A DNA stretch of 64,000 nucleotides from Candidatus Desulfaltia sp. (GTDB lineage Bacteria; Acidobacteriota; Aminicenantia; Aminicenantales; UBA8522). The number at the start of each line of letters is the position of its first letter. Positions within the stretch are counted from its first letter, which is position 1. The notes under the pieces are model-generated. The model saw nothing but the letters and a program-made list of their open reading frames with translations. It had not been told where the DNA came from and searched no databases. The DNA is taken from contig DATKXS010000151.1 in assembly GCA_035528895.1 (NCBI GenBank), forward strand, positions 3,812 to 67,811, read 5' to 3'. Positions 2,105 to 26,119 of the stretch are shown here, in pieces. A program made the translations under genes and the position numbers.

Positions 2105-2134
2105 TTGACATAGTCCTATACATAAGGTTATAAT
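2105..2134 (+). promoter_or_regulatory. Near-consensus sigma70-type promoter (TTGACA-18 nt-TATAAT) driving a leaderless transcript of the XRE regulator
   Basis: TTGACA at 2105-2110 and TATAAT at 2129-2134 in an AT-rich stretch. The ATG of the downstream ORF at 2141 lies 7 nt after the -10 element, so the predicted TSS coincides with the start codon. Confidence 0.4.
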
Positions 2135-2140
2135 GACGGT

Positions 2141-3519: not shown

Positions 3520-3533
3520 TATTTGGCATATAT

Positions 3534-3606
3534 GGCCCGTTAGCTCAATAGGTAGAGCAGCGGACTCTTAATCCGCAGGTTGGAGGTTCGAGCCCTCCAC
3601 GGGTCA
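3534..3606 (+). tRNA. tRNA-Lys (anticodon CTT)
   Basis: 73-nt cloverleaf read directly. Acceptor stem ggcccgt/acgggtc with one G-U pair; D-arm agctcaataggtagagc; anticodon stem gcgga/tccgc with loop ctCTTaa; T-arm ggttcgagccctcc. No encoded CCA. Confidence 0.85.
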
Positions 3607-3620
3607 TTCGGATCCCTCCG

Positions 3621-8292: not shown

Positions 8293-9558
8293 CTAAAGAT
8301 CCGTTTTGTATCTGAGGCGGAAGTGGGAGGGGGTGATCTTTTCGAGCTTCTTGAAATTCTTGGTGAAGTGGCTCTGGTCGCAATACCCGAGCTCGGCGGC
8401 CAGCTCGGCCAGCGAGATATCGCTGTTCAGGAGAAGGTATTTCGCGTAATCGAGTTTCAGCTTGTTGATATAGCCCGTCAAAGCCATCCCCGTCTCTTGC
8501 CGAAACAAGTGAAGCGCCCGGCTGACGCTGAGCCCGGCTTCCCCGGCGACATCCCGGGCGGTGATCTTGCCGGTGAAGTTCTGCTCGATGAAATCGCGCA
8601 TCCGCTGGCACCGGACCTTCCTCTTTTTCCCTTTGCTCAACGAAACCTTGGCGATGAAATTCTCCAGGACCCGGGTGACCTTGAAGAGCAACTCCTCCAG
8701 GTCCGTCACCTTGCTGAGCTCGGTGAGATAGGAATAGTTGAGCCCGAGGAGCTCCTGGGCTCCGACCCCGGCCTCGATGGCCGCCCGGGAGATGATGACG
8801 ATGAGCTCGATGATCCGGACCTTGATCACCTCGAAGTTCATCCCGCTCTCGAAGAAGATCGAGCCCAGGAATTCGTTCAGGATCTCCCGAGCCCCGGCCC
8901 TGTCCCCCAGCTTCACCTTCTGGATGATCTCGTCCTGTTTGTCCAGGATCTTCCGGGCAATGTCGGGGTTTTCCCTCTTCAGTTTTTCCAGGAAGTTGGC
9001 GATCTTGTATTGCTGAATGTATTTTTCGTTCCGCTCCCTCAGAAAAGCGAGGTCGTTGATCTGGTGTTTTTGGGTCAGGGACATGAGCTGGGAGACGGCC
9101 TCTTTCGCCCTCCTGAGAGAGATATCCCTGACGCCCTGAGCCCTGAGGCCGAGCGGCTTTGCCGCCGCGCCGAATCTGGCCAGGTTGGCGGAGACTTCTT
9201 CGGCAAAATCCTCCTTCATTTCGGCAAAGATGGCGAATCCGCTGATCAACCCGCCCTTGAGCTTCTTGTGCTGGACGATGGGTACCGCGAAGAGAACAAA
9301 TCCCAGCGGGCAGGTTGTGATGTAGCCCTCCCCCCAGCGGAATGATTCCTCGACAGCCTGAGCCATCTTCTGGCGGCAGTTCTTGCCCAGCTTCTCCTCT
9401 CCGCCGGCAACGGCTTTCCGGCAAAAGTCGCAGCCTCCGGAACTGTGGATGATCTTGCCCCCGAGGTCGACCAGGACCAAGTGAAGGCCCGTCTTTTGCC
9501 GGTACTCCGCGGCGAGGGATTTGAACCGGACCGCGGCTATGGTTTTCCCCGTCTCCAT
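8293..9558 (-). CDS. AraC-family transcriptional regulator with N-terminal PocR-type sensory domain
   Basis: The C-terminal 100 aa are a canonical AraC HTH pair (...ARDVAGEAGLSVSRALHLFRQETGMALTGYINKLKLDYAKYLL...DISLAELAAELGYCDQSHFTKNFKKL). The N-terminus (HSSGGCDFCR...ITTCPLGF) matches the PocR ligand-binding domain. The likely start is METGKT (ATG complement at 9556-9558); the track ORF extends to 9591. Confidence 0.75.
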   Translation of the reverse strand: METGKTIAAVRFKSLAAEYRQKTGLHLVLVDLGGKIIHSSGGCDFCRKAVAGGEEKLGKNCRQKMAQAVEESFRWGEGYITTCPLGFVLFAVPIVQHKKLKGGLISGFAIFAEMKEDFAEEVSANLARFGAAAKPLGLRAQGVRDISLRRAKEAVSQLMSLTQKHQINDLAFLRERNEKYIQQYKIANFLEKLKRENPDIARKILDKQDEIIQKVKLGDRAGAREILNEFLGSIFFESGMNFEVIKVRIIELIVIISRAAIEAGVGAQELLGLNYSYLTELSKVTDLEELLFKVTRVLENFIAKVSLSKGKKRKVRCQRMRDFIEQNFTGKITARDVAGEAGLSVSRALHLFRQETGMALTGYINKLKLDYAKYLLLNSDISLAELAAELGYCDQSHFTKNFKKLEKITPSHFRLRYKTDL

Positions 9559-9620
9559 TCTGGTATAATCCCGGAGAGCATTATCTAGCAAAATTATACA
9601 AGAGAAGACCGGAAAAGGCC

Positions 9621-10259
9621 ATGCGGACCCTGACCGAGATCGCGGCGAGTGTCGAGGCCGGGGATTCGGCCAGGGTCAAGGAGCTGACCCGGAAGGCCCT
9701 TTCTCAGGGACACCGCCCGGAAAAAATCCTGGACGACGGCCTAATCCAGGGGATGTCGGCAATCGGGGAGAAGTTCAAGAGCAACGAGGTCTTCATTCCG
9801 GAGGTCCTGATCGCCTCCCGGGCCATGAATGTTGGGCTGGAGATCCTTCGCCCGCTCTTTTCCCCCGAGCGGGAGCATTTCAGGAGGAAAATTGTCCTGG
9901 CCACGGTCAAAGGGGACCTCCACGATATCGGCAAAAAAATCGTCGGGATGATGCTCGAAGGAGCCGGGTATAAGGTCGTGGACCTGGGAATCGATGTCCC
10001 CAAGCGAACGATCGTCCGGGCCGTCAAGATTAATCGGCCGTCCGTCCTCGGGCTGTCCGCCCTTCTCACGACGACCATGTCCTATATGAGGGATGTTGTC
10101 GAGGCCATAGAACACGCTGGGCTCAGACGCCGGGTCCGGATCGTCATCGGAGGTGCTCCCGTAACGCGCTCCTACGCCGACGAGATCGGGGCCGACGGCT
10201 ATGCGCCCGATGCGGCCTCTGCTCTAGAGGTGGTCAAGAGACTGTCGGCCAAGAAATAA
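9621..10259 (+). CDS. Cobalamin-binding corrinoid protein (MtaC/MtbC/MttC-like)
   Basis: 212 aa. Cap helical domain followed by a Rossmann B12-binding domain carrying the DxHxxG motif (GDLHDIGK), SALLTTT and GGAP. Confidence 0.8.
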   Translation: MRTLTEIAASVEAGDSARVKELTRKALSQGHRPEKILDDGLIQGMSAIGEKFKSNEVFIPEVLIASRAMNVGLEILRPLFSPEREHFRRKIVLATVKGDLHDIGKKIVGMMLEGAGYKVVDLGIDVPKRTIVRAVKINRPSVLGLSALLTTTMSYMRDVVEAIEHAGLRRRVRIVIGGAPVTRSYADEIGADGYAPDAASALEVVKRLSAKK

Positions 10260-10269
10260 GGGAGGGAAG

Positions 10270-11055
10270 ATGAAGATTGCGGTGTCCGGGAAAGGAGGAG
10301 TCGGCAAGTCGACGATCGCCGGGATCTTGGCTCATTATTTTGTCCGGAACGGCTACAAGGTCCTGGCCGTCGATGCCGATCCCGACGCCAACTTGGCAGC
10401 CGCTCTCGGGATCCCGAAGTCAGAGACGCAAAGGATCTTGACCATATCTCAGCAGAGGGATCTCATCAAGGAGAGAACGGGCGCTTCTCCCCGGCAATTC
10501 GGCCAACTGTTTAAGATCAACCCCCGGGTCGATGATATCCCCGAGGACTACTCGTTCCCATTTAGGGGCATCCGGCTCTTGGTCATGGGGGCCGTTCGCA
10601 AGGGAGGGGAAGGATGTGCCTGCCCCGAGAATGTCCTGCTCAAGAGTCTGCTCTCTGAGATCATCCTGCGCCGGGATGAAGCCGTCATCGTCGACATGGA
10701 GGCTGGAATTGAACATCTGGGCCGGGCCACGGCGTCGGCCATCCAGGAAATGATCATTGTCGTTGAGCCCGGCTCCCGGAGCGTCGACACGGCTCTGACC
10801 ATCATGAGGCTGTCTCGGGACATCGGCCTTCAGGAGTTCCGGATTATCGGCAATAAAGTCCAGGACGATGACCAGGAGCGCTGGATTCGCTCTCATTTTC
10901 CGCCCGCCCTTATCTTAGGCATGATCCCCTACAGCGAGTCCATCCGGGACGCTGACCGGAGTGAACAGCCGCTCATCGACATTCTGGATGACCGGCTCCG
11001 GACGGAATTCAGGTCGATCTTCTCGGCCCTGATCAGCGGTCGACATCCGGCCTGA
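10270..11055 (+). CDS. cooC: CooC/AcsF-type Ni-insertion accessory ATPase for CODH/ACS
   Basis: Deviant Walker A SGKGGVGKST and the conserved Cys-x-Cys metal-binding motif (GEGCACPEN) typical of CooC. Confidence 0.75.
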   Translation: MKIAVSGKGGVGKSTIAGILAHYFVRNGYKVLAVDADPDANLAAALGIPKSETQRILTISQQRDLIKERTGASPRQFGQLFKINPRVDDIPEDYSFPFRGIRLLVMGAVRKGGEGCACPENVLLKSLLSEIILRRDEAVIVDMEAGIEHLGRATASAIQEMIIVVEPGSRSVDTALTIMRLSRDIGLQEFRIIGNKVQDDDQERWIRSHFPPALILGMIPYSESIRDADRSEQPLIDILDDRLRTEFRSIFSALISGRHPA

Positions 11056-11176
11056 AATTGGCCGGTATTTTTCCGGTAAAAATAGCATGATTATACGAAT
11101 TCTTACCCCCTCATTCCTATATTCCCAGTCGCAAAAAGGATATCCTGGATCCGGGAGATAAAGAGCGAGGTCTATC

Positions 11177-12217
11177 ATGAGCTTCAACCCTCAAGGTTTG
11201 GCCACGGCTATCGGCAGTCTGCCCCATCAGAGCCCCGAGGCGGCCTGCCGGGCCGTCTTGGACAGCATCCCGGAAATCCCGATCTGGCCCCAGCTTCCAG
11301 CTTTGGATTTCCGGGAAAGCATGGAGATTCAATACTCGGAGGGTCTTCCCGGTGTGGTCCTCGATCCCGTCGGCCGGAGGATGCATTTCGATACCGGCGG
11401 GGACATTACCCTGGGGCTGGAGAAGTTCTACGAGAACTATATGGCCGAGAACCTCGAGTACTTCCGGATCTCTCCGGGTTTCAGCCGGGGTATCTACGAG
11501 ATGGAGAGAATGTTGGCCGCGCAGAAACCGGCCGGTCTCCGCTATTTCAAGAACCAGGTGACCGGCCCCATTACCGTCGGCCTCGGCCGCACGGACGAAA
11601 AGAAGCGCTCCATCTATTACAACGAGATGATGAGGGATGTCATAGTCAAGGGCGCCGAGATGAAAGCCCGCTGGATGTTGACCCGGTTCCGGGCGCTCGG
11701 GGTGCCGCAGCTCTGCTTTATCGACGAGCCGATCCTGTCGGCCTTCGGTTCCTCGACCTATGTCAGTGTCCAGCGCTCCGACCTCGTTCAATACCTGCGG
11801 GACGTCATCGCGGCCGTCCACAAAGAGGGCGGCTTGGCCGGAATCCACTGCTGCGGGAATACCGAATGGACGATTCTCGTCGATGCCGGCACGGACGTCA
11901 TCAGCTTTGATGCCTTCGACTATGGGGAGACCATCGCTTACTACCCCGGTCCGATGAAAGACTATCTGGAGAGGGGAGGGGTGCTGGCCTGGGGCATCGT
12001 TCCGACTTCGGCCAAGATCGCCGCGGAAACCCCGGAAACCCTGCTCGGGCGGCTTCGTTCGGCCGTCGAAAACCTGGCCGGCAAGGGGATCCCGAAGAGC
12101 CTGATCTGGGAAAAGTGCCTGGTCACGCCGAGCTGTGGGACCGGTACGCTTCCCGTAGATTTGTCGGAGAAGGTTTTTGCCCAGTTGGGCGAGGTGAGCC
12201 GCCGGTTGCGGGCTTAA
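11177..12217 (+). CDS. URO-D-family zinc methyltransferase (MtaA/MtbA/MtsA-like methylcobamide:thiol methyltransferase)
   Basis: 346 aa. GIHCCGNT near residue 215 and VTPSCGTG near residue 318 mirror the MtaA zinc-ligand pattern (LHICGN ... PGCGI). Size and (beta/alpha)8 organisation are consistent. Confidence 0.55.
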   Translation: MSFNPQGLATAIGSLPHQSPEAACRAVLDSIPEIPIWPQLPALDFRESMEIQYSEGLPGVVLDPVGRRMHFDTGGDITLGLEKFYENYMAENLEYFRISPGFSRGIYEMERMLAAQKPAGLRYFKNQVTGPITVGLGRTDEKKRSIYYNEMMRDVIVKGAEMKARWMLTRFRALGVPQLCFIDEPILSAFGSSTYVSVQRSDLVQYLRDVIAAVHKEGGLAGIHCCGNTEWTILVDAGTDVISFDAFDYGETIAYYPGPMKDYLERGGVLAWGIVPTSAKIAAETPETLLGRLRSAVENLAGKGIPKSLIWEKCLVTPSCGTGTLPVDLSEKVFAQLGEVSRRLRA

Positions 12218-12261
12218 ACACCTGAGCCGGAAAACGGGAGAAATCGTTCGGACAGGAGACA

Positions 12262-14196
12262 ATGTCGAAACCGAAAAGCATAGACAAAACGGTCAACGAG
12301 ATGCTCGAGCAGGCCAAGGCCAAAGGCCTGGAGACGATCTGGGACAGGGCGGACGAGCAGACGCCCCACTGCGGGTTCGGGGAGCAGGGGGTTTGCTGCC
12401 ATGTCTGCTATATGGGGCCCTGCCGGATCAACCCGGCTGGAAAAAAGCCGCAAAAGGGCGTCTGCGGCGCCACTGCCGAAATGATCATCGCCCGGAATTT
12501 CTGCCGGAGGATCGCTGCCGGGACGGCCGCTCATTCCGAACACGGACGGGAGGTGGCCAAGACCCTGCTTTTGGCGGCCACGAACCCCGATTCGGGATAT
12601 GCCATCCGGGATGTCCGGAAGCTCAAAAAGGTCGCTCAGACTTTCGGCGTCTCCATCCAGGACAAACCCAACGACCGGATCGCCCTCGAGGTGGCCGAAC
12701 AGGCTTTGGCCGATTTCGGCCGGCAGGAGGGCGAGATCTCCTTTATCAAAGTGGCCCCCGAGAAGCGGCAGGCTCTCTGGCGTAAGCTGGGCGTCGTGCC
12801 GCGGGGTATCGACCGCGAGGTGGTCGAGATGTTGCATCGGACCACCATGGGAGTGGACCAGGATCACCGCAACATCATGCTCCAGGGTGCCCGGACAGCT
12901 TTGGCCGACGGTTGGGGCGGGTCGATGGTTGCAACTGAGCTCCAGGACATCTTGTTCGGGACGCCGTCCCCGATCCGCGGGCAGGTCAACCTCGGCGTCC
13001 TCTCCAAAACCGATGTCAACATCGTCGTCCACGGACACGAGCCGGTCCTCTCGGAGATGCTCGTCGCGGCTTCCAGGGATAAAGAACTCCAAGCGCTCGC
13101 CAGGTCGGCGGGAGCGACCGGGATCAACCTTGCGGGCATCTGCTGCACGGCTAACGAGATCCTTATCCGCCACGGGCTGCCGATCGCCGGGAACATCCTG
13201 CAGCAGGAGCTGGCCGTGGCCACAGGGGCAGTGGACGCGATGATCGTCGACGTCCAGTGCATTATGCCCTCGCTGCCCCAGATCTGCAAGAACTTCCACA
13301 CGCTGCTCATCACCACTTCGCCCAAGGCCAAGATCGACGGGGCCCGGTCTGTGGATATTCAGGCGGAGAACGCCTATCAGGGGGCCAGGACGATCATCCG
13401 GGAGGCCATCACCAACTACGCTAACCGCGGTGCGGTCGACATCCCCCGGGACAAGATGGACCTCGTCGCCGGTTTTAGTCATGAGGCTATCACTTACATG
13501 CTGGGCGGCTCTTTCCGCGGTTCCTATGTACCCCTTAACGATAACATCATCAACGGCCGGATCAAGGGAGTCGCCGGAGTCGTCGGCTGCTCCAACCCGA
13601 AGACAACCCACGACAAGGGGCACGTCGGCCTGGTCGAAGAGCTCATCGCCAACGATATCCTCGTCGTTCAGACCGGCTGTTCCGCCATCGCCTGCGCTAA
13701 GGCCGGGTTGCTGACTCCGGAATCGGCCATCAAGTACGCGGGTAAAGGCTTGGCCGAGGTCTGCCAAGCTGTCGGCATGCCCCCGGTTCTCCACTCCGGG
13801 TCGTGCGTCGACAACAGCCGCATCCTGATCGCTTTGACCGAGATGGTCAGAGTCGGGGGTTTGGGTCAGGACATCAGCGACCTGCCGGTGGCCGGTGCGG
13901 CTCCGGAGTGGATGAGCGAGAAGGCTATCGCCATCGGGCAGTACTTCGTCGCCTCCGGCGTGTTCACTGTCTTCGGCATCGGGCTCCCGATCACGGGAAG
14001 CGAGCTTTTTTGCCGCCACATCTTTGACGAGTACAAGGACCTTTTCGGCGGCCATTGGGCGGCTCAGCCCGATGGAACCAAGATAGCCGGTATGATCATC
14101 GACCATATCCACGCCAAACGGGAGAAGCTGGGCATCAGCAAGGGCAAGGAAAGGGTGTTGTTCGATATGGAGATGCGGCGTCAACTGGACGTGTGA
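12262..14196 (+). CDS. cooS: Anaerobic carbon monoxide dehydrogenase catalytic subunit (CooS / AcsA, Ni-Fe-S)
   Basis: 644 aa. The N-terminal Cys cluster HCGFGEQGVCCHVCYMGPC...KGVCGA (D- and B-cluster ligands) plus C-cluster region motifs support a CooS-family CODH. Confidence 0.9.
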   Translation: MSKPKSIDKTVNEMLEQAKAKGLETIWDRADEQTPHCGFGEQGVCCHVCYMGPCRINPAGKKPQKGVCGATAEMIIARNFCRRIAAGTAAHSEHGREVAKTLLLAATNPDSGYAIRDVRKLKKVAQTFGVSIQDKPNDRIALEVAEQALADFGRQEGEISFIKVAPEKRQALWRKLGVVPRGIDREVVEMLHRTTMGVDQDHRNIMLQGARTALADGWGGSMVATELQDILFGTPSPIRGQVNLGVLSKTDVNIVVHGHEPVLSEMLVAASRDKELQALARSAGATGINLAGICCTANEILIRHGLPIAGNILQQELAVATGAVDAMIVDVQCIMPSLPQICKNFHTLLITTSPKAKIDGARSVDIQAENAYQGARTIIREAITNYANRGAVDIPRDKMDLVAGFSHEAITYMLGGSFRGSYVPLNDNIINGRIKGVAGVVGCSNPKTTHDKGHVGLVEELIANDILVVQTGCSAIACAKAGLLTPESAIKYAGKGLAEVCQAVGMPPVLHSGSCVDNSRILIALTEMVRVGGLGQDISDLPVAGAAPEWMSEKAIAIGQYFVASGVFTVFGIGLPITGSELFCRHIFDEYKDLFGGHWAAQPDGTKIAGMIIDHIHAKREKLGISKGKERVLFDMEMRRQLDV

Positions 14197-14197
14197 T

Positions 14198-16403
14198 CAT
14201 GTCGAGGATCATAGCCACGCGAGCCATCCGGGGCGCCCACAAGCTGGTGGCCCGGGCCGAACGGGAGCTCCTCCGGGCCATCGAAGAAAAGGGAGCGGAC
14301 GCCCGGGTAGAATTCCCCAACACGGGCTACTATCTTCCCATCTCGCACGGGATTCTCGGGCTGAAGATCGAGACTCTGGGCGGCCTGCGGGAGCTGCTGG
14401 CCGAAGCCCAAGAGCTGCTGCCTCCGGTCCCCTCGGACAATCTCTGGCTCCCCTATCTGGGGAATACGCTCGACGCCGGGATGGCGACACTGTTCGCCGA
14501 TGAGATCATCGAGGCCATCAAGTACACCCAGGACCCTCTCCCATATCTTACCGGGTCCAACCCGAGAGACGGCCGTCTCTGGCTCGGGGCGGCCAACGAT
14601 GTCATTATGCGCGAGCGGGGCATCGAGTTCGTCGACAACACCGCCCCCGGGTTTGCCGCCTGTGTCGGCTGCTGTCCGACGAACGAGATCGCGGTCAGGA
14701 TCGCCAGGGAACTCCAGGAAAAGAACCTCTATGTCTTCATGTCCGCGGCGACGGACGGAAAATCCATGGCGCGGCAACTGGCCGAAGAGGGGATCGAGAT
14801 GGGTTGGGAGACAAGGCTCGTCCCCTTCGGTGATGATGTCACGGCCACCGTTCACGCCCTGGGGTTCTCGACGAGGGTGGCTCTTTCCTTCGGGGGCGCC
14901 CAGCCGGGGGATTACCAGCGTGTCCTTCGCTACAACAAGAACAGGGTTTTCGCCTTCGTATTGGCCCTGGGCCCGGTCGATGACGAAAAGCATGCTCAGG
15001 CGGCCGGGGCCATCAACTACGGGTTCCCGACGATCGCCGACACGGATATCGACAGCATCCTGCCGACGGGCATCTGCACCTACGAGCACGTCGTTTCGCC
15101 CGTTCCCCTGGAAAGGATCGTTTCCAAGGCGATCGAGGTCCGGGGACTCAAGATCACCGTCACCAAGGTTCCGATTCCCGTGCCGTTCGGCCCCGCCTTC
15201 CAGGGAGAGCGGGTCCGGAAAGAGGACATGTATGTGGAGCTGGCCGGGACAGACAAACCGGGCTTCGAATATTTGACCGGCCGGAGCCTGGAGGAGGTCG
15301 AGGACGGGAAGATCGAAGTCATCGGGCCGGAGATCGAGGACATGGAAGAGGGCAGCCAGCTTCCGCTAACCCTCTGGGTGGAAGTCGCGGGCCGCCAGAT
15401 GCAGCCCGATTTCGAGCCGATCCTGGAGCGGCGCCTGCATGATTTCATGAACATGGCCCATGGCGTTTTTCATATGGGGCAGCGGGACATCAACTGGGTC
15501 CGGATCAGCAACGAGGCCAAGGGAGCCGGGTTCCGGTTCCGTCACTTCGGCTCGATCATCCACGCCAAGCTGCACGGCGAGTTCGGCAAGATCGTCGACA
15601 AGGTCCAGGTGCGGATATACACCCGGGAGAAGGAGATCCGGGAGCTCATCGAGACCGCCCGGACAGTCTACCGCCGGCGTGATGAACGGCTGGCCGATCT
15701 GACCGACGAGGCCGTCGAGACCTTCTATTCGTGCACCCTCTGCCAATCCTTTGCCCCGAATCATGTTTGCGTCATCACCCCGGAACGCTCCGGCCTCTGC
15801 GGCGCCTATAACTGGCTCGACGGCAAGGCCGCCCACCAGATCAATCCCACCGGCGCCAACCAGCCCATCTTGAAGGCCCAGGTCATCGACCCGGTCAAGG
15901 GGCAATGGCAGGGGATCAATGAATTCGTCCTCAACGCCTCGCACAAGACGCTCCAGGTCTTCAGCGCTTACAGTATTATCGACAACCCCATGACCTCCTG
16001 CGGCTGCTTCGAATGCATCTCCTGCGTCCTCCCTTCCTGCAACGGGATCATGACGGTCTACCGGAATTTTCCCGGGATGACGCCGAGCGGGATGAAGTTC
16101 TCGACCCTGGCGGGGACGGTCGGGGGAGGCATCCAGACGCCCGGGTTCATCGGCCACAGCAAGCACTATATCAGCAGCCGGAAATTCATCAGCGCGGAGG
16201 GCGGAGCCAGGCGAATCGTCTGGATGAACCGCGAGCTCAAGGAAGAACTGGACTCACAGTTGCGCGAGATCGGCCGGCGCGAAGGGATCGAGAACTTCCC
16301 GGAGATGATCGCCGACGAGACCGTGGCCGTGACCGAGGAAGAAGTGCTTCCCTATATCACCAGGATGAACCATCCGGCGCTGGCCATGCCGCCTTTGTTT
16401 TGA
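14198..16403 (+). CDS. acsB: Acetyl-CoA synthase (AcsB; CODH/ACS alpha subunit, A-cluster)
   Basis: 735 aa from the ATG 1 nt after the cooS stop. A-cluster ligands are present: SCTLCQSF...HVCVITPERSGLCGA and the Cys-Gly-Cys motif (MTSCGCFECISC). The track ORF (14055-) is over-extended upstream. Confidence 0.9.
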
Positions 16404-16418
16404 GAGGGAGACCCGGAC

Positions 16419-17171: not shown

Positions 17172-17183
17172 GGGAATCGAAGC

Positions 17184-18182: not shown

Positions 18183-19500
18183 CATCTTTAAGCTCTTGCC
18201 CAAGACGAACTGCGGCGATTGCGGCGTTCCCACCTGCATGGCCTTCGCCATGAAGATCGCCCAGAAGAAGGCCGAGCTTTCGAGCTGTCCCCATGCTTCC
18301 GAGGAAGCCAAGGCCGTCCTGGGCGCGGCCGGCGAACCTCCGATCCGACTGCTCAAGATCGGCCCTGAGAAGGCTCTGGAGGTGGGTGGGGAAACTGTCC
18401 TCTTCCGGCACGAAAAGACGTTCTTTCACCCGCCCGGGATAGGCCTGGAGCTGCGGACATCCTCAGCCGAGGACAGCATCCGCGCCGCTATTCAGCAGTG
18501 GGAGGATTTTCAGATCGAACGGGTGGGCGAGCTCCTCCAGGCCGACCTCTTTTTCATCTCCCATGATTCGCCGGGAAAATCCGCTTTCCTGAGGACGATC
18601 GCGCTCGTCAAAGCGAATTCGGAAAAAGGAGTAATTGTCGACTGTCCGGACGAGGGATCTTTGAAGGCGGGCCTCGAGCTTCTCCGGAATGACCGGCCGG
18701 CGATCTACCTGCGCCGGCCGGTGACGGACAAGGACATCGGGCTGGCGAAAGCCGCGGGAGCCAGCCTGATCATCTCGGGCTCCTCGCTGGAAGACCTGGC
18801 CGATCAGACGGAGAGGGCCCGGCAAGCCGGTCTGACTGACCTCATCCTGAACGGCCCGGCGGCGGGTTTGGGAGAGGCCATCCGGAACAACACGATCCTG
18901 AGACGGAGCGCCCTCAAGAGGAACTTCAAGCCTTTCGGCTATCCCATTTTGACCCGGATCCAGAGCGAAGACGGGTTCGAGTCGCTGGCCGGGGCGACCG
19001 TCCTCCTCTGCAAGTATGCCTCGATCATCGTCCTGCCCCGGTTTGATAAGGCTCTGCTCTACACCCTTTTTACCCTCCGGCAGAATATCTACACCGACCC
19101 CCAGAAGCCGATCCAGGTCGACCCCAAGGTCTACGCCATCGGCGAGCCCACTCCGGGATCTCCCGTCTTCGTGACGACGAATTTCTCTTTGACCTATTTC
19201 ATCGTCTCGGGGGAGATCGAAAACTCCGGGACGTCCGCTCATCTCGTCGTCTGCGACACCGAGGGGCAGTCCGTTCTCACGGCCTGGGCGGCGGGAAAGT
19301 TCGTCCCGGAAAAGATCGCCAAGTTCATCAAGGACATCAAGCTAGAAGAGATGGTCGAGACCCGAAAACTCGTCATCCCCGGCTTAGTGGCCCAGATCTC
19401 CGGCGAGCTGGAAGAAAAACTTCCCGGCTGGGAGATCATCGTCGGCTGCCAGGATGCGGCCGACATCCCCTCTTTTGTCAAGAGCGTGAATCTGGCCTGA
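18163..19500 (+). CDS. acsC: Corrinoid iron-sulfur protein large subunit (AcsC / CdhE-like)
   Basis: 445 aa with the N-terminal [4Fe-4S] motif KTNCGDCGVPTCMAFAMK characteristic of the CFeSP large subunit. Confidence 0.85.
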   Translation: MALSGLDIFKLLPKTNCGDCGVPTCMAFAMKIAQKKAELSSCPHASEEAKAVLGAAGEPPIRLLKIGPEKALEVGGETVLFRHEKTFFHPPGIGLELRTSSAEDSIRAAIQQWEDFQIERVGELLQADLFFISHDSPGKSAFLRTIALVKANSEKGVIVDCPDEGSLKAGLELLRNDRPAIYLRRPVTDKDIGLAKAAGASLIISGSSLEDLADQTERARQAGLTDLILNGPAAGLGEAIRNNTILRRSALKRNFKPFGYPILTRIQSEDGFESLAGATVLLCKYASIIVLPRFDKALLYTLFTLRQNIYTDPQKPIQVDPKVYAIGEPTPGSPVFVTTNFSLTYFIVSGEIENSGTSAHLVVCDTEGQSVLTAWAAGKFVPEKIAKFIKDIKLEEMVETRKLVIPGLVAQISGELEEKLPGWEIIVGCQDAADIPSFVKSVNLA

Positions 19501-19516
19501 TGAATACGATAGAGTC

Positions 19517-21421
19517 ATGAAGAAGGCTTGCCGAGTCGAATTCCTGCCCTTCCTCAGCCGCCGCGATTATGCTCGCGGGACGAACCTTCTGGATGCGGTG
19601 AGAGAAATCAGCCTGCCACTCAAGTCAACCTGCGGCGGAAAAGGAACCTGCGGCGAATGCCTCGTCCGGATCAAGAGCGGAAAAGCCACGAGCAGGGCAT
19701 CGTCCGGTCTTCCGGAAGATGTCCGGCGGCGGGGATATGCATTGGCCTGCCGGACCGAGATCGAGGATGATCTCACGGTCGAATTGCCGAGATTTGAAGA
19801 GCGATCCGTCCGTGCCCTCGCCGGCTCCCGCTTTTTCGAGGCCCATCCCGACCGGATCTCGGGCGTCTTCGAGGTCAGCCCGGCCGTCAGGAAGCTCCGG
19901 CTCTCCCTGCCGGCTCCGACGCTGGCCGATAACTCCAGCGACCTGCGGCGGGTCCAGCGGCAGATTCAGAAATCAGATGGTCTCCGCTGCCGGCAGGCCG
20001 AATATCATGTTTTGCTCAGGCTGGCCGCCGCGGTGAGGAAACAGGATGGCCAAGTGACCGCCGTCCTTTCTCGCTCCGGCTCCGAATGGCGGCTGGTCGA
20101 TCTCCAGCCCTTCCCGCCGCCCCAAAACGTCTACGGTCTGGCGTGTGACCTGGGGACGACGACGGTCGTCACCGCGATCGTCGACTTGGAGGACGGGAGG
20201 ATCCTGAGCACGACATCGGGCCTCAACCAGCAGCTCCGCTGCGGGGAGGATGTGATCTCGAGGATCGATTATGCCGGGAAACCGGGTCGTTTGCGGGAAC
20301 TCCAGATGCTGGCCGCCCGGACGGTCAATTCCCTACTGGAAAAAGCGTGCCGGGAGGCCGGGATTTCGAGCGCCGATATTTATGATGTCTCCCTGGCCGG
20401 CAACACGACAATGACCCATCTTCTTCTCGGTCTTGACCCGCGCACCATTCGGGAAGAGCCCTATATCCCGACCGTGAACCTGGTGCCGCCGGTCAAAGCC
20501 GTTGACCTGGGATTGGATTTGAATCCCGAGGCCATCGTCCATTGCGCCCCGGCCGTCGGGAGCTACGTCGGAGGCGATATCACCGCCGGTCTTCTCGCCA
20601 CTCCGATCCTCAGGACGGAAGAGGAGACTTCGCTGTTCATCGATGCCGGGACCAATGGAGAATTGGTCATCGGCAACAGAGATTGGCTGGCCGCCTGTGC
20701 CTGCTCGGCCGGCCCGGCCTTCGAAGGGGGCGGGACGAAATGCGGCCTTCCGGCCGGAGACGGCGCCATCGAGTCGGTGACCATTCAGGGAAATGGCCGG
20801 CTCGAATACCGGGTGATCGGAGGAGGGAAGCCCAAGGGGGTGTGCGGCTCCGGCCTGGTCGACCTTCTGGCCGAGCTTTTCGTCCACGGCTTCATCGACC
20901 GCGCTGGGAAGCTAAACGACAGGAAGGCGGGGACGAGGTTCGTCAGGAAGGAGGACGGCGCCGGTTTTCTGATCGAACGCGCTTCTCGATGCGAATGGGG
21001 CAGGGACCTGGTCATCTCCGAGAAGGACATCGCCAACCTAATCCGCACCAAGGGCGCGATCTATTCGGCCTGCGCCGTCCTTCTGAAGAACATCGGCCTG
21101 GCCTTTGACCGGCTGGACGCCGTCTATCTTGCCGGCGGGTTCGGCGAGCATCTCAACATCGAGAACGCCGTCCGGATCGGCCTCCTGCCCGATCTCGAGC
21201 GGGAAAAATTCTGCTACCTGGGAAACACCTCTCTGACCGGCGCCTATCTCGGGCTGGTCTCGGAGAAGAACCGCGAGCTGGTCGAAACCATCGCCGCCAA
21301 GATGACCTACCTCGAGTTGAACGCGGAACCGGGCTACATGAATGAATACACCGGCTCTCTCTTTTTTCCCCATACGGATATCGGACTTTTCCCGACGGTC
21401 AAAAAAATCGTCGAGCCTTGA
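19517..21421 (+). CDS. Reductive activator of corrinoid proteins (RACo-type; [2Fe-2S] ferredoxin + ASKHA ATPase)
   Basis: 634 aa. N-terminal plant-type ferredoxin Cys pattern (CGGKGTCGECLV...C), then a large ASKHA-fold region. Located directly after acsC, as RACo is in acetogens. Confidence 0.7.
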   Translation: MKKACRVEFLPFLSRRDYARGTNLLDAVREISLPLKSTCGGKGTCGECLVRIKSGKATSRASSGLPEDVRRRGYALACRTEIEDDLTVELPRFEERSVRALAGSRFFEAHPDRISGVFEVSPAVRKLRLSLPAPTLADNSSDLRRVQRQIQKSDGLRCRQAEYHVLLRLAAAVRKQDGQVTAVLSRSGSEWRLVDLQPFPPPQNVYGLACDLGTTTVVTAIVDLEDGRILSTTSGLNQQLRCGEDVISRIDYAGKPGRLRELQMLAARTVNSLLEKACREAGISSADIYDVSLAGNTTMTHLLLGLDPRTIREEPYIPTVNLVPPVKAVDLGLDLNPEAIVHCAPAVGSYVGGDITAGLLATPILRTEEETSLFIDAGTNGELVIGNRDWLAACACSAGPAFEGGGTKCGLPAGDGAIESVTIQGNGRLEYRVIGGGKPKGVCGSGLVDLLAELFVHGFIDRAGKLNDRKAGTRFVRKEDGAGFLIERASRCEWGRDLVISEKDIANLIRTKGAIYSACAVLLKNIGLAFDRLDAVYLAGGFGEHLNIENAVRIGLLPDLEREKFCYLGNTSLTGAYLGLVSEKNRELVETIAAKMTYLELNAEPGYMNEYTGSLFFPHTDIGLFPTVKKIVEP

Positions 21422-21463
21422 ACAAAGGCTCGAGGACGGAGATATTTGCAAGGAGGAAGAGCA

Positions 21464-22350
21464 TGTCCGCAGCGATCCTGGAATTGATCCGGAAACGCAG
21501 GGTGCTCCTCGACGGCGGCTTCGGGACCGAGCTCATCCGGCTCGGATTCCCTCAAGGGGCCTGTCCCGAAACCTGGAATGTGGAGAGGCCCGATGTCGTC
21601 AAGGAGATCCACGGGAGCTATTTTGAGGCCGGTTCGGATGCCGTCCTGACCAACAGCTTCGGGGGAAGCGCGATCAAACTGGCCTCTCACGGCCAGGACA
21701 AAAGGTGCTATGAATTGAACAAAGCAGCGGCGACCATCGCCAATGAGGTCAAGCCCGCGGGATGTTTCGTCGGCGGAAGCCTGGGGCCGACGGGGAAGTT
21801 CCTCCAACCGCAGGGCGAGTTCACGGAACGGCAGTTCGAGGATGCCTACGCCGAGCAGGCGAGGGGTCTGGCCGACGGCCTGGCCGATTTTCTGTTGATC
21901 GAGACACAGTACGATCTCAGAGAGGCGCACTGTGCCTTGCGGGCGGCCCGCCGGGTTACGGCCATCCCGGTCTTCGTGACCATGACCTACAACCGGGTTC
22001 CGAGGGGCTTTTTCACGATGATGGGGAACAGCGCCGCCCAGTGCCTCGAAGAGCTCGAAAGGGAAGGAGTCCCCGTCCTGGGAGCCAACTGCACCCTCGA
22101 CAGTGCGGACATGGCCGACCTGGTCAAGGCCATGAGAGAGAAAACCGGGCTTCCGCTGATCGCCCAGGCCAACGCCGGGAAACCCTCTCTTTCCGCGCAA
22201 GGGGAGGTCTCCTACTCGCAGGGATTGGAGGACTATCTTCAGCACATCCCCCGGACGATCGAGAACGGAGCGAACATCATCGGCGGCTGCTGCGGGACGA
22301 ACCCCGAGTATATTCGCCGGATGGCCGCCCTCGTTAAAGAGGAAAGTTGA
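21464..22350 (+). CDS. Homocysteine-binding-domain (MetH N-terminal-like, S-methyltransferase Pfam family) zinc methyltransferase
   Basis: ILELIRKRRVLLDGGFGTEL (MetH-like ILDGAMGT), a first Zn ligand in GANCTL and the terminal GGCCGTNPEYI (MetH GGCCGTTP Zn-ligand pair). Start chosen at the ATG 8 nt after AGGAGG (21464); the track start 21418 overlaps the RACo stop. Confidence 0.7.
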
Positions 22351-22439
22351 AAAGTCCTTCCGTTTGGATATGATAGTGAACTATGTCACGGAAACTGGAT
22401 TCTTTTGGAACCGATCGAACATCGGAGAAAGGAGAGACG

Positions 22440-23090
22440 ATGAGAAAAGAGGAATTATTTGCCCGGATGGAAAAGGCGATCATCGAAGGAGGGAAGGCCG
22501 AAGCGCAAGCCCTGGCCCGCGAGGCGATCAAGGCCAAGCTCGATCTCAACGAGGTCATCGAAAACGGCTATGTGCCGGGGATCCAGAAGGTCGGCGACCT
22601 CTGGGAAAAGGGCGATTACTTCCTGCCCGAGCTGATCACCAGCGCCGAGTGCATGAAGGCTGCCATGGCCGTCCTCCAGCCCGAGCTGGACAAGGCCAAG
22701 ATCAAGACCAAGTCCAAGGGCAAGGTCGTGATCGGCACTATCGAAGGGGACATCCATGACATCGGCAAAAACCTGGTCGCGTCCATGCTCTCGGCCAACG
22801 GGTTCGAGGTCTTTGACCTGGGCGCGGACGTGAAACTGGAGAGGTTCATCCAGAAGGCCGAGGAGACAGAGGCCGATTTCATTTGCCTTTCGGCCCTGCT
22901 GACGACCACAATGCTCGGGCAGAAAAAAGCCATCGAGATGCTCAAGGAGAAGAACCTCTACGGAAAATTCAAGGTCCTGGTCGGCGGAGCGCCGGCCAGT
23001 CAGAAATGGGCCGATGACATCGGGGCCGACGGGTACGCGGAGAACGCCATGCTCGCGGTCAAGGTGGCCAAGCGGCTGATGGGAGCCTGA
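22440..23090 (+). CDS. Cobalamin-binding corrinoid protein (second copy)
   Basis: 216 aa from MRKEELFARMEKAI. B12-binding motifs EGDIHDIGK (DxHxxG), SALLTTTM and GGAP. About 35 % identical by eye to the 9621 corrinoid protein. Confidence 0.8.
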   Translation: MRKEELFARMEKAIIEGGKAEAQALAREAIKAKLDLNEVIENGYVPGIQKVGDLWEKGDYFLPELITSAECMKAAMAVLQPELDKAKIKTKSKGKVVIGTIEGDIHDIGKNLVASMLSANGFEVFDLGADVKLERFIQKAEETEADFICLSALLTTTMLGQKKAIEMLKEKNLYGKFKVLVGGAPASQKWADDIGADGYAENAMLAVKVAKRLMGA

Positions 23091-23137
23091 AGCCGCGACC
23101 GACGTCCTAGCGTCAGAACGGAAAGGAAGGAAGACAG

Positions 23138-24604
23138 ATGATCAAAACAATCCGACCGAAACTGGAATTGTTGAGCCGCCGGTTCATCGAAAAAATCATC
23201 GATGAGGCCTATGAGATCCTGGACAAGCAGGGGATCTTCGTCGAGAACAAGAACGCCCTGAAGCTCTTCGAGCAAGCGGCAATGAAGGTCGACAAGAAAT
23301 CCCAGCGTGTCCATCTCAAGCGTCGGCTCGTGGAGAAATGCCTGGCCACGGCGCCGTCCGTCGTCCATCTTTACGACCGCGCCGGAAAAAGGGAATACGC
23401 GGTCGGCGGCGACGAGGTCCATTTCGACCCAGGGTCTGCGGCCGTGACCATTCTCGACCACAAAACAGGGGAAGAGAGAAAGCCGGACACCGGCGACCTG
23501 GTCCGCTTCTACAGGTTGACCGAATGCCTGGAGAACATCCATTTCCAGAGCACCGGCCTGATCAGCTCCGATGTCCCCCCTGCGATCGCGGATATCTACC
23601 GGCTCTACCTCGGACTGCTGTATTCCAACAAGCCCTTTGTCACGGGCACCTTCCGGGTGGAGTCCTTCCGGCCGATGAAGGACCTCCTGGTGGCGGTCCG
23701 GGGAAGCGAGAAGGAACTGGCCAGGAAGCCCCTGGCCATCTTCGATGCCTGTCCCTCTCCTCCTCTCAAATGGAGCAACCTGACGACCCAGAGCCTGATC
23801 GATGCGGCCCGGGCGGGGATCCCCTCCGAGCTCATCTCGATGGGCATGACGGGCGCCACCTCTCTGGTGACGATCGCCGGCACCCTGGTCCAGCATGTCG
23901 CTGAGAACCTCTGCGGCGTCGTCATCGTCCAGCTCGCCAAACCGGGCGCGGCGGTGATCTTCGGCGGCTCCCCCTCCAGCTTTGATATGAGGCGCGGAAC
24001 GACGCCGATGGGCGCGATCGAGACGATGATGATCGATGTCGGCTACAGCCAGATCGGGAAATATCTGAACCTGCCGACCCACGCCTACATGGGTTTGAGC
24101 GACGCCAAGACTAACGATGCCCAGGCCGGGCTGGAGACAGGGCTCGGGGCGGTGCTGGGAGCTCTGGCCGGCGTCAATGTCATCAGCGGACCCGGGATGC
24201 TCGACTTCGAGAGCTGTCAGAGCCTGGAGAAGCTGGTCATCGACGATGAAATCTGCGGCATGGCTTATCGGCTGATCGCCGGCATTGCCCAGCGCGAGGA
24301 CCCCATCGCCGCGGACAAATTCGTTGGTTTCACTCCGGAAACGCAGTTCCTCACCCTGCCCCATACCAAGAAATGGTACAGGATGGAGCATTCCTACCCC
24401 GTGATCGCGGACAGGGACACCTACGACGCCTGGGTGGCCCTGGGGAAAAAGCCGATAGCGGAGAGGGCTTCAGAACAGCTGGAGGAAATCCTGCGGTCCA
24501 ACCCGCCCGCTCTTGCGGAGAAGCATGTCCGGAGCGATCTTACAAAAGTCATGATCGCCCTCGCCAAAGCCAATGGGATAGCCACCCTGCCCGAACTGCC
24601 GTAG
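23138..24604 (+). CDS. MttB-superfamily methyltransferase, non-pyrrolysine type (quaternary-amine:corrinoid methyltransferase-like)
   Basis: 488 aa, uninterrupted by an in-frame amber codon. Size and TIM-barrel-like composition match non-Pyl MttB homologues such as the glycine-betaine methyltransferase MtgB. Confidence 0.75.
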   Translation: MIKTIRPKLELLSRRFIEKIIDEAYEILDKQGIFVENKNALKLFEQAAMKVDKKSQRVHLKRRLVEKCLATAPSVVHLYDRAGKREYAVGGDEVHFDPGSAAVTILDHKTGEERKPDTGDLVRFYRLTECLENIHFQSTGLISSDVPPAIADIYRLYLGLLYSNKPFVTGTFRVESFRPMKDLLVAVRGSEKELARKPLAIFDACPSPPLKWSNLTTQSLIDAARAGIPSELISMGMTGATSLVTIAGTLVQHVAENLCGVVIVQLAKPGAAVIFGGSPSSFDMRRGTTPMGAIETMMIDVGYSQIGKYLNLPTHAYMGLSDAKTNDAQAGLETGLGAVLGALAGVNVISGPGMLDFESCQSLEKLVIDDEICGMAYRLIAGIAQREDPIAADKFVGFTPETQFLTLPHTKKWYRMEHSYPVIADRDTYDAWVALGKKPIAERASEQLEEILRSNPPALAEKHVRSDLTKVMIALAKANGIATLPELP

Positions 24605-24670
24605 ACGAGCTTCTGAAGAGCGGATACGTCTTCGTTTTCTTGGCTGGATATCCCGGAAAGGAGCGCGACG

Positions 24671-26119
24671 GTGAGCGAGATGATCAAGTCCATCGCCAAT
24701 CCACGCCTGAGTTTGAACATTCTCAGCCCTGAGGATATAGAGAAGATCCACCGCTCGAGCCTGCGGGTGATCGAATCGGCGGGCGTGAGATTCCCTTCGA
24801 AGAAGGCGCTCGATATCTGGCGGTCCCACGGCGCCGCGGTCGACGAGGGTTCGATGGTCGTCAAAGCCCCGGGGCGACTGATCGAGGAGGCGATTCGCCA
24901 GGCTCCTCCCGTCTATACGTTGGCGGCCGGAAATCCGGCCCTCGACCTTCTCCTGGACGGCAACCACGTCTATGTCGGCACGGACGGCTGCGGCGTCGAG
25001 ATCATCGACATCCGGACGGGAGAACGGCGGAGATCGATCCTCCAGGACGTCGCCGACATCGCCCGGGTCGCCGACGGTCTCGATGAGATCGGCTTTCACT
25101 GGGTTCCTGTCTCCGCCCAGGACTGCCCGCCGCAGTCGCGCGGACTTCATGAACTCCTGGCCATCTGGAAGAATTCCACGAAACATGTCCAGACGGAAAG
25201 CATCTATACGGAGACCGAAGCCCGCGCCGCCGTGGAGATGGCGGCTCTGCTTGCGGGGGGAAAAGAAGCCCTGAGGAAGCGCCCCCTGCTTTCGATCATG
25301 GAGTGCACGGTCTCTCCTCTAGCCCATGAAAAAGGGAGCCTGGAAGCCGCCCTGGTCGGAGCGGAATCCGGCCTCCCAGTCGGTTTCATGAGCATGGCCT
25401 CGTGCGCCTCGTCCGGACCGGCCACACTCGCCGGGAACCTCGTCGTCGCCAACGCGGAAGTGCTGAGCGGTCTGGCTCTCGTCCAGCTGGCTTATCCCGG
25501 AGCGCCCGTTTTCTATGCCGCGGCCCAGACGGTGATGGACCTCAGGACAGGCGCCTACACGGGAGGGGGCCCGGAGGATTTTCTTTTCGGCGCGGCCAGC
25601 AACAGACTGGCCGACTTCTACAGCGTTCCGCTCTCGATGGGATCCTTCGCCACCGGCGCTAAGGAGCCGAACTGGCAGGCGGGTCTGGAGAACGCCCTGT
25701 CCACTTTCATGGCCTCGGCGGCGATCTCGGACATGCTCCTGGGCGTCGGGCTTCTCAACGGGAGCACGGTCTGGTCTTTCGCCCAGATGCTCATGGACTG
25801 CGAGATCTTCGGCATCGTCGCGAAAATGATGGAGGGAATCCCGGTGGATGAAGAGACCCTGGCCGTCGAGGCCATCCGGGATGTCGGGCCGGGGGGGACG
25901 TTCCTGACCCATCCCCACACCAAGCGGCATCTCCGCGGGCTCTGGCTGAATTCCTTTCTCGACCGCCGGCCCTACGGCGTCTGGGAAGAAAAAAAGGACG
26001 GCGCGCCCGACTGGGCCCTGGAAAAAGCCAGGCGAATCCTCGCGGGTCATCAGTCTGCTCCGCTGGAGCCTCGACTCGAAACGGAGCTCGGCCGGATCAT
26101 CAAAACCATGGAAAGATAA
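24671..26119 (+). CDS. MttB-superfamily methyltransferase, non-pyrrolysine type (second paralogue)
   Basis: 482 aa, clearly paralogous to the preceding ORF (shared blocks such as ...PGAPVFYAAAQ/ PGAAVIFGGSP..., GGTFLTHPHTKRH / TQFLTLPHTKKW). No in-frame TAG. Confidence 0.75.
   Translation: MSEMIKSIANPRLSLNILSPEDIEKIHRSSLRVIESAGVRFPSKKALDIWRSHGAAVDEGSMVVKAPGRLIEEAIRQAPPVYTLAAGNPALDLLLDGNHVYVGTDGCGVEIIDIRTGERRRSILQDVADIARVADGLDEIGFHWVPVSAQDCPPQSRGLHELLAIWKNSTKHVQTESIYTETEARAAVEMAALLAGGKEALRKRPLLSIMECTVSPLAHEKGSLEAALVGAESGLPVGFMSMASCASSGPATLAGNLVVANAEVLSGLALVQLAYPGAPVFYAAAQTVMDLRTGAYTGGGPEDFLFGAASNRLADFYSVPLSMGSFATGAKEPNWQAGLENALSTFMASAAISDMLLGVGLLNGSTVWSFAQMLMDCEIFGIVAKMMEGIPVDEETLAVEAIRDVGPGGTFLTHPHTKRHLRGLWLNSFLDRRPYGVWEEKKDGAPDWALEKARRILAGHQSAPLEPRLETELGRIIKTMER

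Follow-up and report, generated by a model that had tools for sequence, protein, structure and literature searches.

An acetyl-CoA synthase gene cluster with a predicted core methionine synthase and without AcsE in a contig of Candidatus Desulfaltia

The stretch of DNA analysed here (64,000 nucleotides, hereafter the window) comes from Candidatus Desulfaltia sp. (assembly GCA_035528895.1, contig DATKXS010000151.1, positions 3,812 to 67,811 of the forward strand). [quoted passage not shown] Thirteen consecutive genes of the plus strand occupy positions 9621 to 26119, with intergenic gaps of -20 to 121 nucleotides. Their order is the one described in the original prediction, which was made by a model from the sequence alone, and their families were confirmed with Pfam and NCBIfam and by the gene calls on the identical public contig. 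The array had been said to start at 8293, but this position belongs to a divergent minus-strand regulator gene outside of the thirteen. A convergent TatD gene closes the array. The genes, in which MesL and HcyMT are the names used here for the two thiol methyltransferases, are the following:

8293 to 9558, minus strand: PocR-sensor/AraC-type regulator, 421 amino acids, divergent from the array (PF10114, PF12833 and PF00165)
9621 to 10259, plus strand: CorA, small MtgC-like corrinoid protein (PF02607 and PF02310; His-on, D99xHxxG)
10270 to 11055, plus strand: CooC1, Ni-insertion ATPase (PF01656 and related families)
11177 to 12217, plus strand: MesL, predicted single-barrel MetE-fold Zn methyltransferase of 346 amino acids, core-methionine-synthase-like
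12262 to 14196, plus strand: CooS, catalytic subunit of Ni-CODH (PF03063, E 1.7e-168; TIGR01702, 667 bits)
14199 to 16403, plus strand: AcsB, acetyl-CoA synthase, 734 amino acids (PF18537, PF03598 and PF19436; NF040764, 1035 bits)
16419 to 17171, plus strand: CooC2, CooC/AcsF-like ATPase
17184 to 18182, plus strand: AcsD, small subunit of the CFeSP (PF03599)
18163 to 19500, plus strand: AcsC, large subunit of the CFeSP (PF04060 and PF03599; DxHxxG absent)
19517 to 21421, plus strand: RACo, reductive activator of corrinoid proteins (PF00111, PF17650, PF17651 and PF14574)
21463 to 22350, plus strand: HcyMT, stand-alone MetH-type homocysteine-binding module, 295 amino acids (PF02574, E 3e-66, 225 bits)
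22440 to 23090, plus strand: CorB, second MtgC-like corrinoid protein (D123xHxxG; 235-residue open reading frame from 22383)
23138 to 24604, plus strand: MttB1, non-pyrrolysine MttB-family methyltransferase (PF06253, 287 bits, profile positions 26-489 of 500)
24671 to 26119, plus strand: MttB2, non-pyrrolysine MttB-family methyltransferase (PF06253, 291 bits, profile positions 21-493 of 500)

The bacterial CODH/ACS set is complete: it comprises CooS, AcsB with the CGC motif of the A-cluster, AcsC with its Fe-S domain, AcsD and a four-domain RACo. AcsC matches the CFeSP of Carboxydothermus hydrogenoformans (2H9A) with 375 bits and 43% identity. CooC1 adjoins MesL across the loci compared, and the PocR/AraC regulator keeps its position in the Aminicenantes loci L001, L005, L007, L010 and L089 (related loci are referred to by such numbers). 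An odd composition of CooS was considered and ruled out, its GC3 of 0.81 being similar to that of the neighbouring genes.

The absence of AcsE from the cluster, which the original prediction had claimed, is borne out by three kinds of search. In the called genes of the window Pfam found no PF00809 protein, and MetF, Fhs and FolD were not among these genes either. In tblastn searches neither AcsE of Moorella thermoacetica (sequence identical to PDB 2E7F_A) nor the pterin domain of E. coli MetH matched anything significantly, either in the window or across the 1.36 Mb of 84 related loci; as a positive control, the MetH pterin domain recovers the AcsE structures with E values of ~1e-13. Finally, a hidden Markov model (HMM) was built from M. 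thermoacetica AcsE and 42 AcsE segments of the control loci described below, and six-frame translations were searched with it. No match was obtained in the window at E<=10, and there is thus no missed AcsE open reading frame (ORF) within the cluster by this search. In the related loci the model gave only weak matches of up to 25 bits, compared to 72-369 bits for true AcsE genes. The stronger of these weak matches that were mapped turned out to be ORFs of AcsC or AcsD, proteins with barrels distantly related to AcsE, with a single exception in L082. This locus, from Elusimicrobia, in which MesL is followed only by a CooC gene, contains a plus-strand ORF of 271 amino acids from position 16732 that has the best score to the AcsE model (24.7 bits, E 1e-5); the match is weak, the ORF matches none of the cluster proteins, and it may encode a pterin-binding-like barrel that has diverged strongly.

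The gene neighbourhood was compared in 80 loci, which were obtained by a pattern scan of GTDB species genomes with the family alignment and were searched by tblastn with 14 window proteins. MesL adjoins acs or cooC genes in 70 of them, and of the ten loci without this linkage, five are short contigs and five carry the most distant homologues (<=44% identity). A CFeSP gene accompanies MesL in 46 species-level loci, where MesL, often together with a PF02574 gene, is linked to CooS-AcsB-AcsD-AcsC-RACo; AcsE is found in none of the 46 and HcyMT in 21. The recurrent order is [PF02574 HcyMT]-MesL-CooC-CooC-CooS-AcsB-AcsD-AcsC-RACo, with HcyMT directly adjoining MesL in about 20-30 loci. The record titles, which are the labels of the submitters, name at least ten phyla. 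They include Aminicenantes, Acidobacteriota, NC10, Phycisphaerae/Planctomycetota, Spirochaetes/Treponema and Victivallales/Lentisphaeria, and further Hydrogenedentota, Verrucomicrobiota, Clostridia (Christensenellaceae, Oscillospiraceae), Syntrophales, Bacteroidales and Desulfovibrionaceae. When 345 flanking ORFs were clustered, no family, including methyl-branch genes and transporters, recurred in more than 4 loci. On a Victivallales chromosome (L039) two tandem copies of HcyMT (7967 and 9085) lie directly upstream of MesL.

As a control, metagenome contigs were scanned with an alignment headed by the canonical AcsC of C. hydrogenoformans, and the loci of at least 8 kb were kept (n=40). The search methods that detect no AcsE in the window do detect it next to acsCD in 34 of these clusters, and in most of the other six AcsC is near a contig end; a MesL-like gene is present in one (L167). 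The difference between 0/46 MesL-type and 34/40 control clusters with AcsE is highly significant (Fisher exact p = 4e-18). Therefore, MesL-type and AcsE-type clusters are nearly exclusive classes. The conserved core of the former, made up of MesL, CooC, CooS, AcsB, CooC, AcsD, AcsC and RACo and usually accompanied by a MetH-type homocysteine module, sets them apart as a class of their own among bacterial CODH/ACS clusters. The canonical metagenome cluster L167 carries both a MesL-like gene (40% identity) and, after AcsC, AcsE (positions 13162 and 15139). It may be an intermediate, or else a MesB-type tap on the normal Wood-Ljungdahl pathway.

The product of MesL had been labelled MtaA/MtsA-like. 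Even at E<=10 no Pfam model matches it, neither that of the UroD/MtaA family PF01208 nor that of the Meth_synt_2 family PF01717, and its only NCBIfam match is a weak one to PRK00957, the model of archaeal short methionine synthases; one relative reaches 18.6 bits to PF01717, under the cutoff of 21. The fold is MetE-like despite the missing PF01717 match. By hhalign with the C-terminal domain of E. coli MetE, the segment KGQxTGP of MesL pairs with KGMLTGP, D183-E-P aligns with D599-E-P, and H224/C226, D245 and C320 align with H641/C643, E665 and C726; I12-G13-S14 matches I431-G432-S433 by eye, outside of the hhalign region. These catalytic residues are invariant or at least 90% conserved among 40 diverse family members. 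The MtaA-like label thus names the right superfamily and the wrong family, and MesL is better described as MetE/MesB-like.

The Zn ligand pattern of MesL is HCDC with a spacing of 2/19/75, and the characterised core-MetE of Dehalococcoides mccartyi has H215/C217/D236/C312 with a spacing of 2/19/76 (PMC7005905). The conserved features of MesB proteins are S433, D599 and HCDC, the region of E484 being variable, and these enzymes were predicted to take methyl groups from the CFeSP (PMC7857596). The occurrence with CFeSP is a MesB trait that MesL displays too, as it adjoins acsCD in 46 loci. MesL also scores 218 bits to a sequence cluster (P0264) which includes a protein named by NCBI 'methionine synthase [Thermoplasmata archaeon]'. 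Judged by these residues and this linkage, MesL looks like one of the core methionine synthases known as MesB or core-MetE. The genomes with its closest relatives are Candidatus Aminicenantes metagenome-assembled genomes, at 90-94% identity. The family contains 2119 clusters (50% identity) at E<=1e-3 and 436 at E<=1e-30, and no Pfam domain is fused to any of its longer members.

The claim that the CFeSP is accompanied by Zn thiol-type methyltransferases holds for MesL and also for HcyMT. The best PDB match of HcyMT is the homocysteine module of Thermotoga maritima MetH (151 bits), followed by BHMT (68) and HMT (55). Its residues C225, C291 and C292, numbered in the 310-residue ORF from 21418, correspond to the Zn cysteines C247, C310 and C311 of MetH. 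Among the cluster-linked homologues C247 is conserved in 32/32 aligned sequences and C310 and C311 in 31/32, and the length of HcyMT is as in all homologues.

The remaining genes of the array do not belong to the conserved core. CorA and CorB consist of a B12 cap and a Rossmann-type B12 domain with a His-on DxHxxG motif, and MtgC and the cobalamin domain of MetH are their relatives. The NCBIfam MtgC models give 244 bits for CorA (MtgC_2) and 232 bits for CorB, below the cutoffs of 370 and 310, and by their domains both proteins are best described as generic methyltransferase corrinoid proteins. MttB1 and MttB2 are 27% identical, both full-length and without internal TAG, and equidistant from the structures of MttB (7XCL) and MtgB (2QNE). 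The stop codon of MttB1 is TAG, and MttB2 starts 66 nucleotides further on in the same frame (24602-24671). A read-through from MttB1 to MttB2 was considered and rejected, since each is a complete MttB domain. In the pyrrolysine-using MttB enzymes this residue sits inside the domain and not at its C-terminal end; no pyl genes were seen in the window.

The thirteen genes had been put forward as one conserved unit, and this did not hold. Within Aminicenantes the arrangement PocR|CorA-CooC-MesL-...-RACo-HcyMT is kept down to 60-68% identity, but CorB-MttB is separate or missing in L088 and L089: in the former three opposite-strand genes stand between HcyMT and the corrinoid-MttB pair, and in the latter HcyMT is located elsewhere, followed by a DUF3786 gene (10949-11503). 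In nearly all loci outside of Aminicenantes the CorB-MttB module is absent beside the cluster, and small corrinoid or MttB genes occur near it only in L020, L023 and L059. Thus the small-corrinoid and MttB modules are lineage-specific additions outside of the conserved core. In the closed Aminicenantes genome CP070825.1 (L001) a second RACo-like gene (1401-3155) lies 7 kb upstream of the cluster; the RACo inside the cluster (18530-20488) is called there as two ORFs of 218 and 300 amino acids, possibly due to a frameshift or a split gene.

The two ends of the CorA-CooC1 segment carry features that bear on transcription. A 14-nucleotide motif, TAGCA[A/T][A/G]AT[T/C][A/G]TAC, has exactly two matches in the window, and a terminator-like hairpin at the end of CooC1 precedes the second of them:

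9586 to 9599, plus strand: first copy of the motif, 22 nucleotides upstream of CorA
11047 to 11065, plus strand: terminator-like hairpin at the end of CooC1, weak, from the consensus scan only
11083 to 11096, plus strand: second copy of the motif, 81 nucleotides upstream of MesL

Four further Aminicenantes loci carry the motif at the same two positions, upstream of their CorA and MesL homologues (8233 and 9902 in L001, 8410 and 9907 in L005, 6894 and 8620 in L007, 14584 and 16412 in L089), while 1.1 Mb of other loci contain 2 matches. The consensus scans for promoters and terminators performed at chance level and were used only together with the conserved motif; a sigma-70-like match upstream of CorB (22347-22374) is no more than expected by chance. 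This motif may be an operator at which the divergent PocR/AraC regulator acts, or it may be a promoter element, and two transcription starts are predicted after the TAGCAWRATYRTAC motifs. A single compact transcription unit, as claimed originally, is therefore not indicated: the conserved motif and the hairpin point to at least two co-regulated units and not to one transcript. The PocR/AraC regulator probably controls at least two promoters, those of CorA and MesL, via the common motif. Rfam at gathering thresholds detected no riboswitches in the window and only a tRNA; in 7 other loci it gave no S-adenosylmethionine (SAM) or tetrahydrofolate (THF) riboswitch and one adenosylcobalamin riboswitch (L059).

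We propose that in these clusters the CFeSP has a Zn thiol methyltransferase as its methyl partner, in the place of the methyl-THF enzyme AcsE, and that the MesL-type layout probably links the methyl group of ACS to methionine rather than to folate. The reading to which we give a probability of about 0.5 is that the cluster is a folate-independent methyl-corrinoid hub with homocysteine as the sink. Acetyl-CoA would be cleaved by AcsB, the methyl group would pass to Co(I)-CFeSP (AcsCD), and CO would be oxidised to CO2 by CooS. MesL would then demethylate CH3-Co(III)-CFeSP and methylate Zn-activated homocysteine, yielding methionine, and RACo would repair oxidised Co(II) and so reactivate the corrinoids. 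In Aminicenantes a second input may exist: MttB1 and MttB2 would charge CorA and CorB with methyl groups from quaternary or methylated amines, and the stand-alone MetH-type homocysteine module would hand them over to homocysteine. MttB, CorA/CorB and HcyMT would in this case make up a split MetH with MttB in place of the folate module. We infer the substrates, the direction of flux, the pairing of corrinoid proteins with methyltransferases and the motif-binding protein from the observed gene identities, catalytic residues, fold, linkage, AcsE exclusion and common motif.

The original prediction had left open whether methyl groups enter acetyl-CoA synthesis or are drawn from it. When a thiolate accepts the methyl group of CH3-Co(III), free energy is released, which favours the methionine-forming direction. 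Together with the Dehalococcoides precedent, the thermodynamics favour methyl groups being drawn off to methionine: in D. mccartyi, which has neither AcsE nor MetF, the methionine methyl group derives from acetate according to labelling work cited in PMC7857596 and PMC7005905. For the second input, a system of MttB, HcyMT, corrinoid protein and activator has already been proposed to serve methionine synthesis (Williams 2022, PMC9324843).

Several observations weigh against the hub. MesB is defined operationally by a score of 130 bits or more against A0A0V8M4G6 of D. mccartyi (PMC7857596), and it is by residues and spacing that MesL was likened to MesB; it is also without the H122xxG motif of the Dehalococcoidia core-MetE. 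HcyMT and MesL stand side by side in many loci where the CFeSP is the only corrinoid protein nearby, which would seem superfluous if methionine were the plain product of each. To supply biosynthetic methyl groups with nine genes of Ni/Co machinery, CooS and two CooC proteins among them, is costly. No SAM/methionine riboswitch is present in the window or in the 7 loci, so no regulatory link to methionine was found. Finally, the search for AcsE, MetF, MetH and MetE covered the 64 kb and, in relatives, the 10-kb flanks.

One could argue instead for an ordinary Wood-Ljungdahl pathway whose AcsE, MetF, Fhs and FolD genes lie in another part of the genome, with MesL and HcyMT as nothing more than methionine synthases that are co-located with the corrinoid proteins because they tap them. 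The DNA examined is 64 kb and, in relatives, 10 kb on each side, which leaves room for such genes. The window also has an NAD-linked, formate-dehydrogenase-like set (NuoE, NuoF and a molybdopterin subunit) and NfnAB-like genes at 40333-47226, the Aminicenantes genome E29_bin47, to which locus L007 belongs, was inferred to be an acetogenic heterotroph (Dong 2019), and L167 combines AcsE with a MesL-like gene. However, AcsE stands beside acsCD in most of the control clusters and in none of the MesL-type ones, and its systematic displacement in each MesL lineage would be an odd coincidence; nor does any methyl-branch gene family recur in the flanks. Thus we consider the ordinary pathway unlikely, even though it is the alternative that survives best.

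The alternative that comes next, and which we likewise hold to be improbable, reverses the flow. In it homocysteine/methionine would replace THF/methyl-THF between two corrinoid proteins: the MttB proteins would methylate CorA/CorB, HcyMT would pass the methyl group to homocysteine, MesL in reverse would transfer it from methionine or another thioether to Co(I)-CFeSP, and AcsB would condense it with CO made by CooS. Such a thiol relay into acetyl-CoA synthesis, a folate-independent methylotrophic acetogenesis, gives a non-redundant role to every gene and explains why there are two Zn thiol methyltransferases and two kinds of corrinoid protein. It agrees with the systematic absence of AcsE from the 46 MesL-type clusters, with the corrinoid or MttB genes near such clusters outside of Aminicenantes in L020, L023 and L059, and with the upstream motif that CorA and MesL have in common, which is consistent with co-expression of both halves. 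MtsA-like Zn methyltransferases do perform thioether-to-cobalt transfers. However, methyl transfer from a thioether to Co(I) is uphill by roughly 20-30 kJ/mol, as known from the MtaA and Mtr reactions of methanogens, and the uphill MesL step makes the net flux to acetyl-CoA thermodynamically tight. Moreover, most MesL-type clusters outside of Aminicenantes have no small corrinoid or MttB gene within 10 kb, L088 and L089 have a detached MttB module, and such a relay has no experimental precedent. The full version, in which homocysteine/methionine is a diffusible folate substitute and amine methyl groups run via CorA/CorB, HcyMT, MesL and CFeSP into acetyl-CoA together with CO derived from CO2, seems to us more doubtful still. 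If the relay were true, folate-free methylotrophic acetogenesis would exist, with the AcsE-less MesL-type cluster as its signature in many phyla.

Very improbable, finally, is a corrinoid-mediated thioether/sulfonium transmethylase in which MesL and HcyMT would be the donor and acceptor barrels of a MetH-like unit, carrying for example a methyl group from a methylated sulfur compound to homocysteine with ACS as an overflow or alternative source: the direct adjacency of HcyMT and MesL in about 20-30 loci, the intact Zn sites of both and the parallel to the rigid pair of Hcy and Fol barrels in MetH would suit it, but MesL retains the Ser and Asp with which MetE binds homocysteine/methionine, so that it looks like a second site for this substrate and not like a site for a different donor, and no sulfur-compound transporter or catabolic genes recur in the flanks.

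The original prediction did not recognise the arrangement as a described system. This is correct only in part, because pieces of it have been published as proposals: core methionine synthases drawing on the CFeSP were proposed earlier (Deobald 2020, PMC7005905; Price 2021, PMC7857596), and a cluster of non-pyrrolysine MttB, homocysteine methyltransferase, corrinoid protein and activator was noted in diverse bacteria and proposed to be a MetH-like methionine synthase with an unknown methyl donor (Williams 2022, PMC9324843). On the other hand, in the open-access literature we found no description of a conserved class of bacterial acs clusters that have a MesB-like protein, alone or together with a MetH homocysteine module, in place of AcsE, nor of the near-perfect mutual exclusion of MesL-type clusters with AcsE, nor of the Aminicenantes elaboration with CorA, CorB, MttB and a common operator.

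Among the closest known systems is the incomplete Wood-Ljungdahl pathway of D. mccartyi with its core-MetE/MesB (Zhuang 2014; PMC7005905; PMC7857596). It likewise has AcsB and CFeSP without AcsE and a single-barrel MetE-like Zn enzyme with the HCDC set at nearly identical spacing, and the flow proposed for it runs from acetyl-CoA via CH3-CFeSP to methionine. Contrastingly, the window has CooS and two CooC proteins, and therefore CO can be oxidised; the MetE-like gene lies inside the acs operon, and a MetH-type homocysteine module is present. MesL matches neither PF01717 nor the HxxG motif of Dehalococcoidia, and the genomes with the MesL arrangement bear the labels of many phyla. In some methanogens, too, a core methionine synthase gene is clustered with CFeSP genes, in operons of mesB-acsC-acsD (Price 2021, Fig 3B; PMC7857596), but these are archaeal and contain acsCD only, whereas here the full bacterial CooS-AcsB-AcsD-AcsC-RACo set is found and AcsE is excluded.

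The segment 21463-26119 together with RACo has the same set of components as the cluster of Williams 2022 (PMC9324843), and the same hypothesis of MetH-like methionine synthesis applies to it. It differs in that the activator is RACo, of the ASKHA type and common with the CFeSP, instead of the AdoMet-binding activation domain of MetH, in its fusion to an acs operon, and in its two deeply diverged MttB paralogues. The split MetH of Phaeobacter inhibens (bmt/cbp/PGA1_c16040; PMC12366255; Price 2020-21) resembles it in the stand-alone PF02574 protein and the B12-binding protein, but the window and the related loci have no PF00809 component. In comparison with the canonical acs operon of Moorella and Carboxydothermus, CooS, AcsB, AcsC, AcsD, CooC and RACo are orthologous, but AcsE is missing, MesL with or without HcyMT is added, and the order is AcsB-(CooC)-AcsD-AcsC-RACo instead of AcsB-AcsC-RACo-CooC-AcsD-AcsE. 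In the MT1/MT2 systems of methanogens (MtaABC, MtsAB) a corrinoid protein likewise shuttles between substrate and Zn thiol methyltransferases of the UroD/MetE superfamily. However, the thiol methyltransferases here are of MetE and MetH type with homocysteine residues and not UroD-type MtaA, and genes related to coenzyme M are absent.

Since CODH/ACS genes widely serve as markers of acetogenesis or autotrophy in metagenomes, and since folate-dependent acetogenesis is routinely deduced from acsB and cooS, the AcsE-less class has practical weight. If many acs clusters exchange their methyl group with a thiol and not with folate, many calls of acetogenesis and autotrophy in metagenomes would be wrong; the genomes concerned include some labelled Victivallales, Christensenellaceae, Treponema, Phycisphaerae, Acidobacteriota and Aminicenantes. 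Such organisms may use ACS to obtain methionine methyl groups from acetyl-CoA, or for methyl capture free of the folate branch. MesL offers a concrete and testable partner of the CFeSP from a family of more than 2000 clusters at 50% identity that has no Pfam model. The single-organism precedent of Dehalococcoides would thereby be extended to a general type of gene cluster, which bears on the coupling of C1 metabolism and methionine synthesis before folate-dependent routes arose.

About 13 kb downstream of the cluster the window contains a run of redox genes (39198-48558). It consists of alanine dehydrogenase, a NuoE-like gene, a NuoF-like gene (40786-42507), a formate-dehydrogenase-like molybdopterin subunit whose N-terminus is of the NuoG type (about 42510-44848), a pair resembling NfnAB and an acetyl-CoA hydrolase/transferase, and has no Fhs, FolD or MetF; these genes could provide C1 metabolism with its formate and reductant. 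Upstream of the cluster, a helix-turn-helix gene (2141-2338), a phage-type integrase (2335-3519) and tRNA-Lys(CTT) (3533-3607) lie together at 2141-3607. In the related locus L002, whose MesL is identical and whose cluster proteins are 99-100% identical, RmuC and TrkA-type genes take the place of the integrase, and this suggests a mobile element that is polymorphic in its insertion at the tRNA gene.

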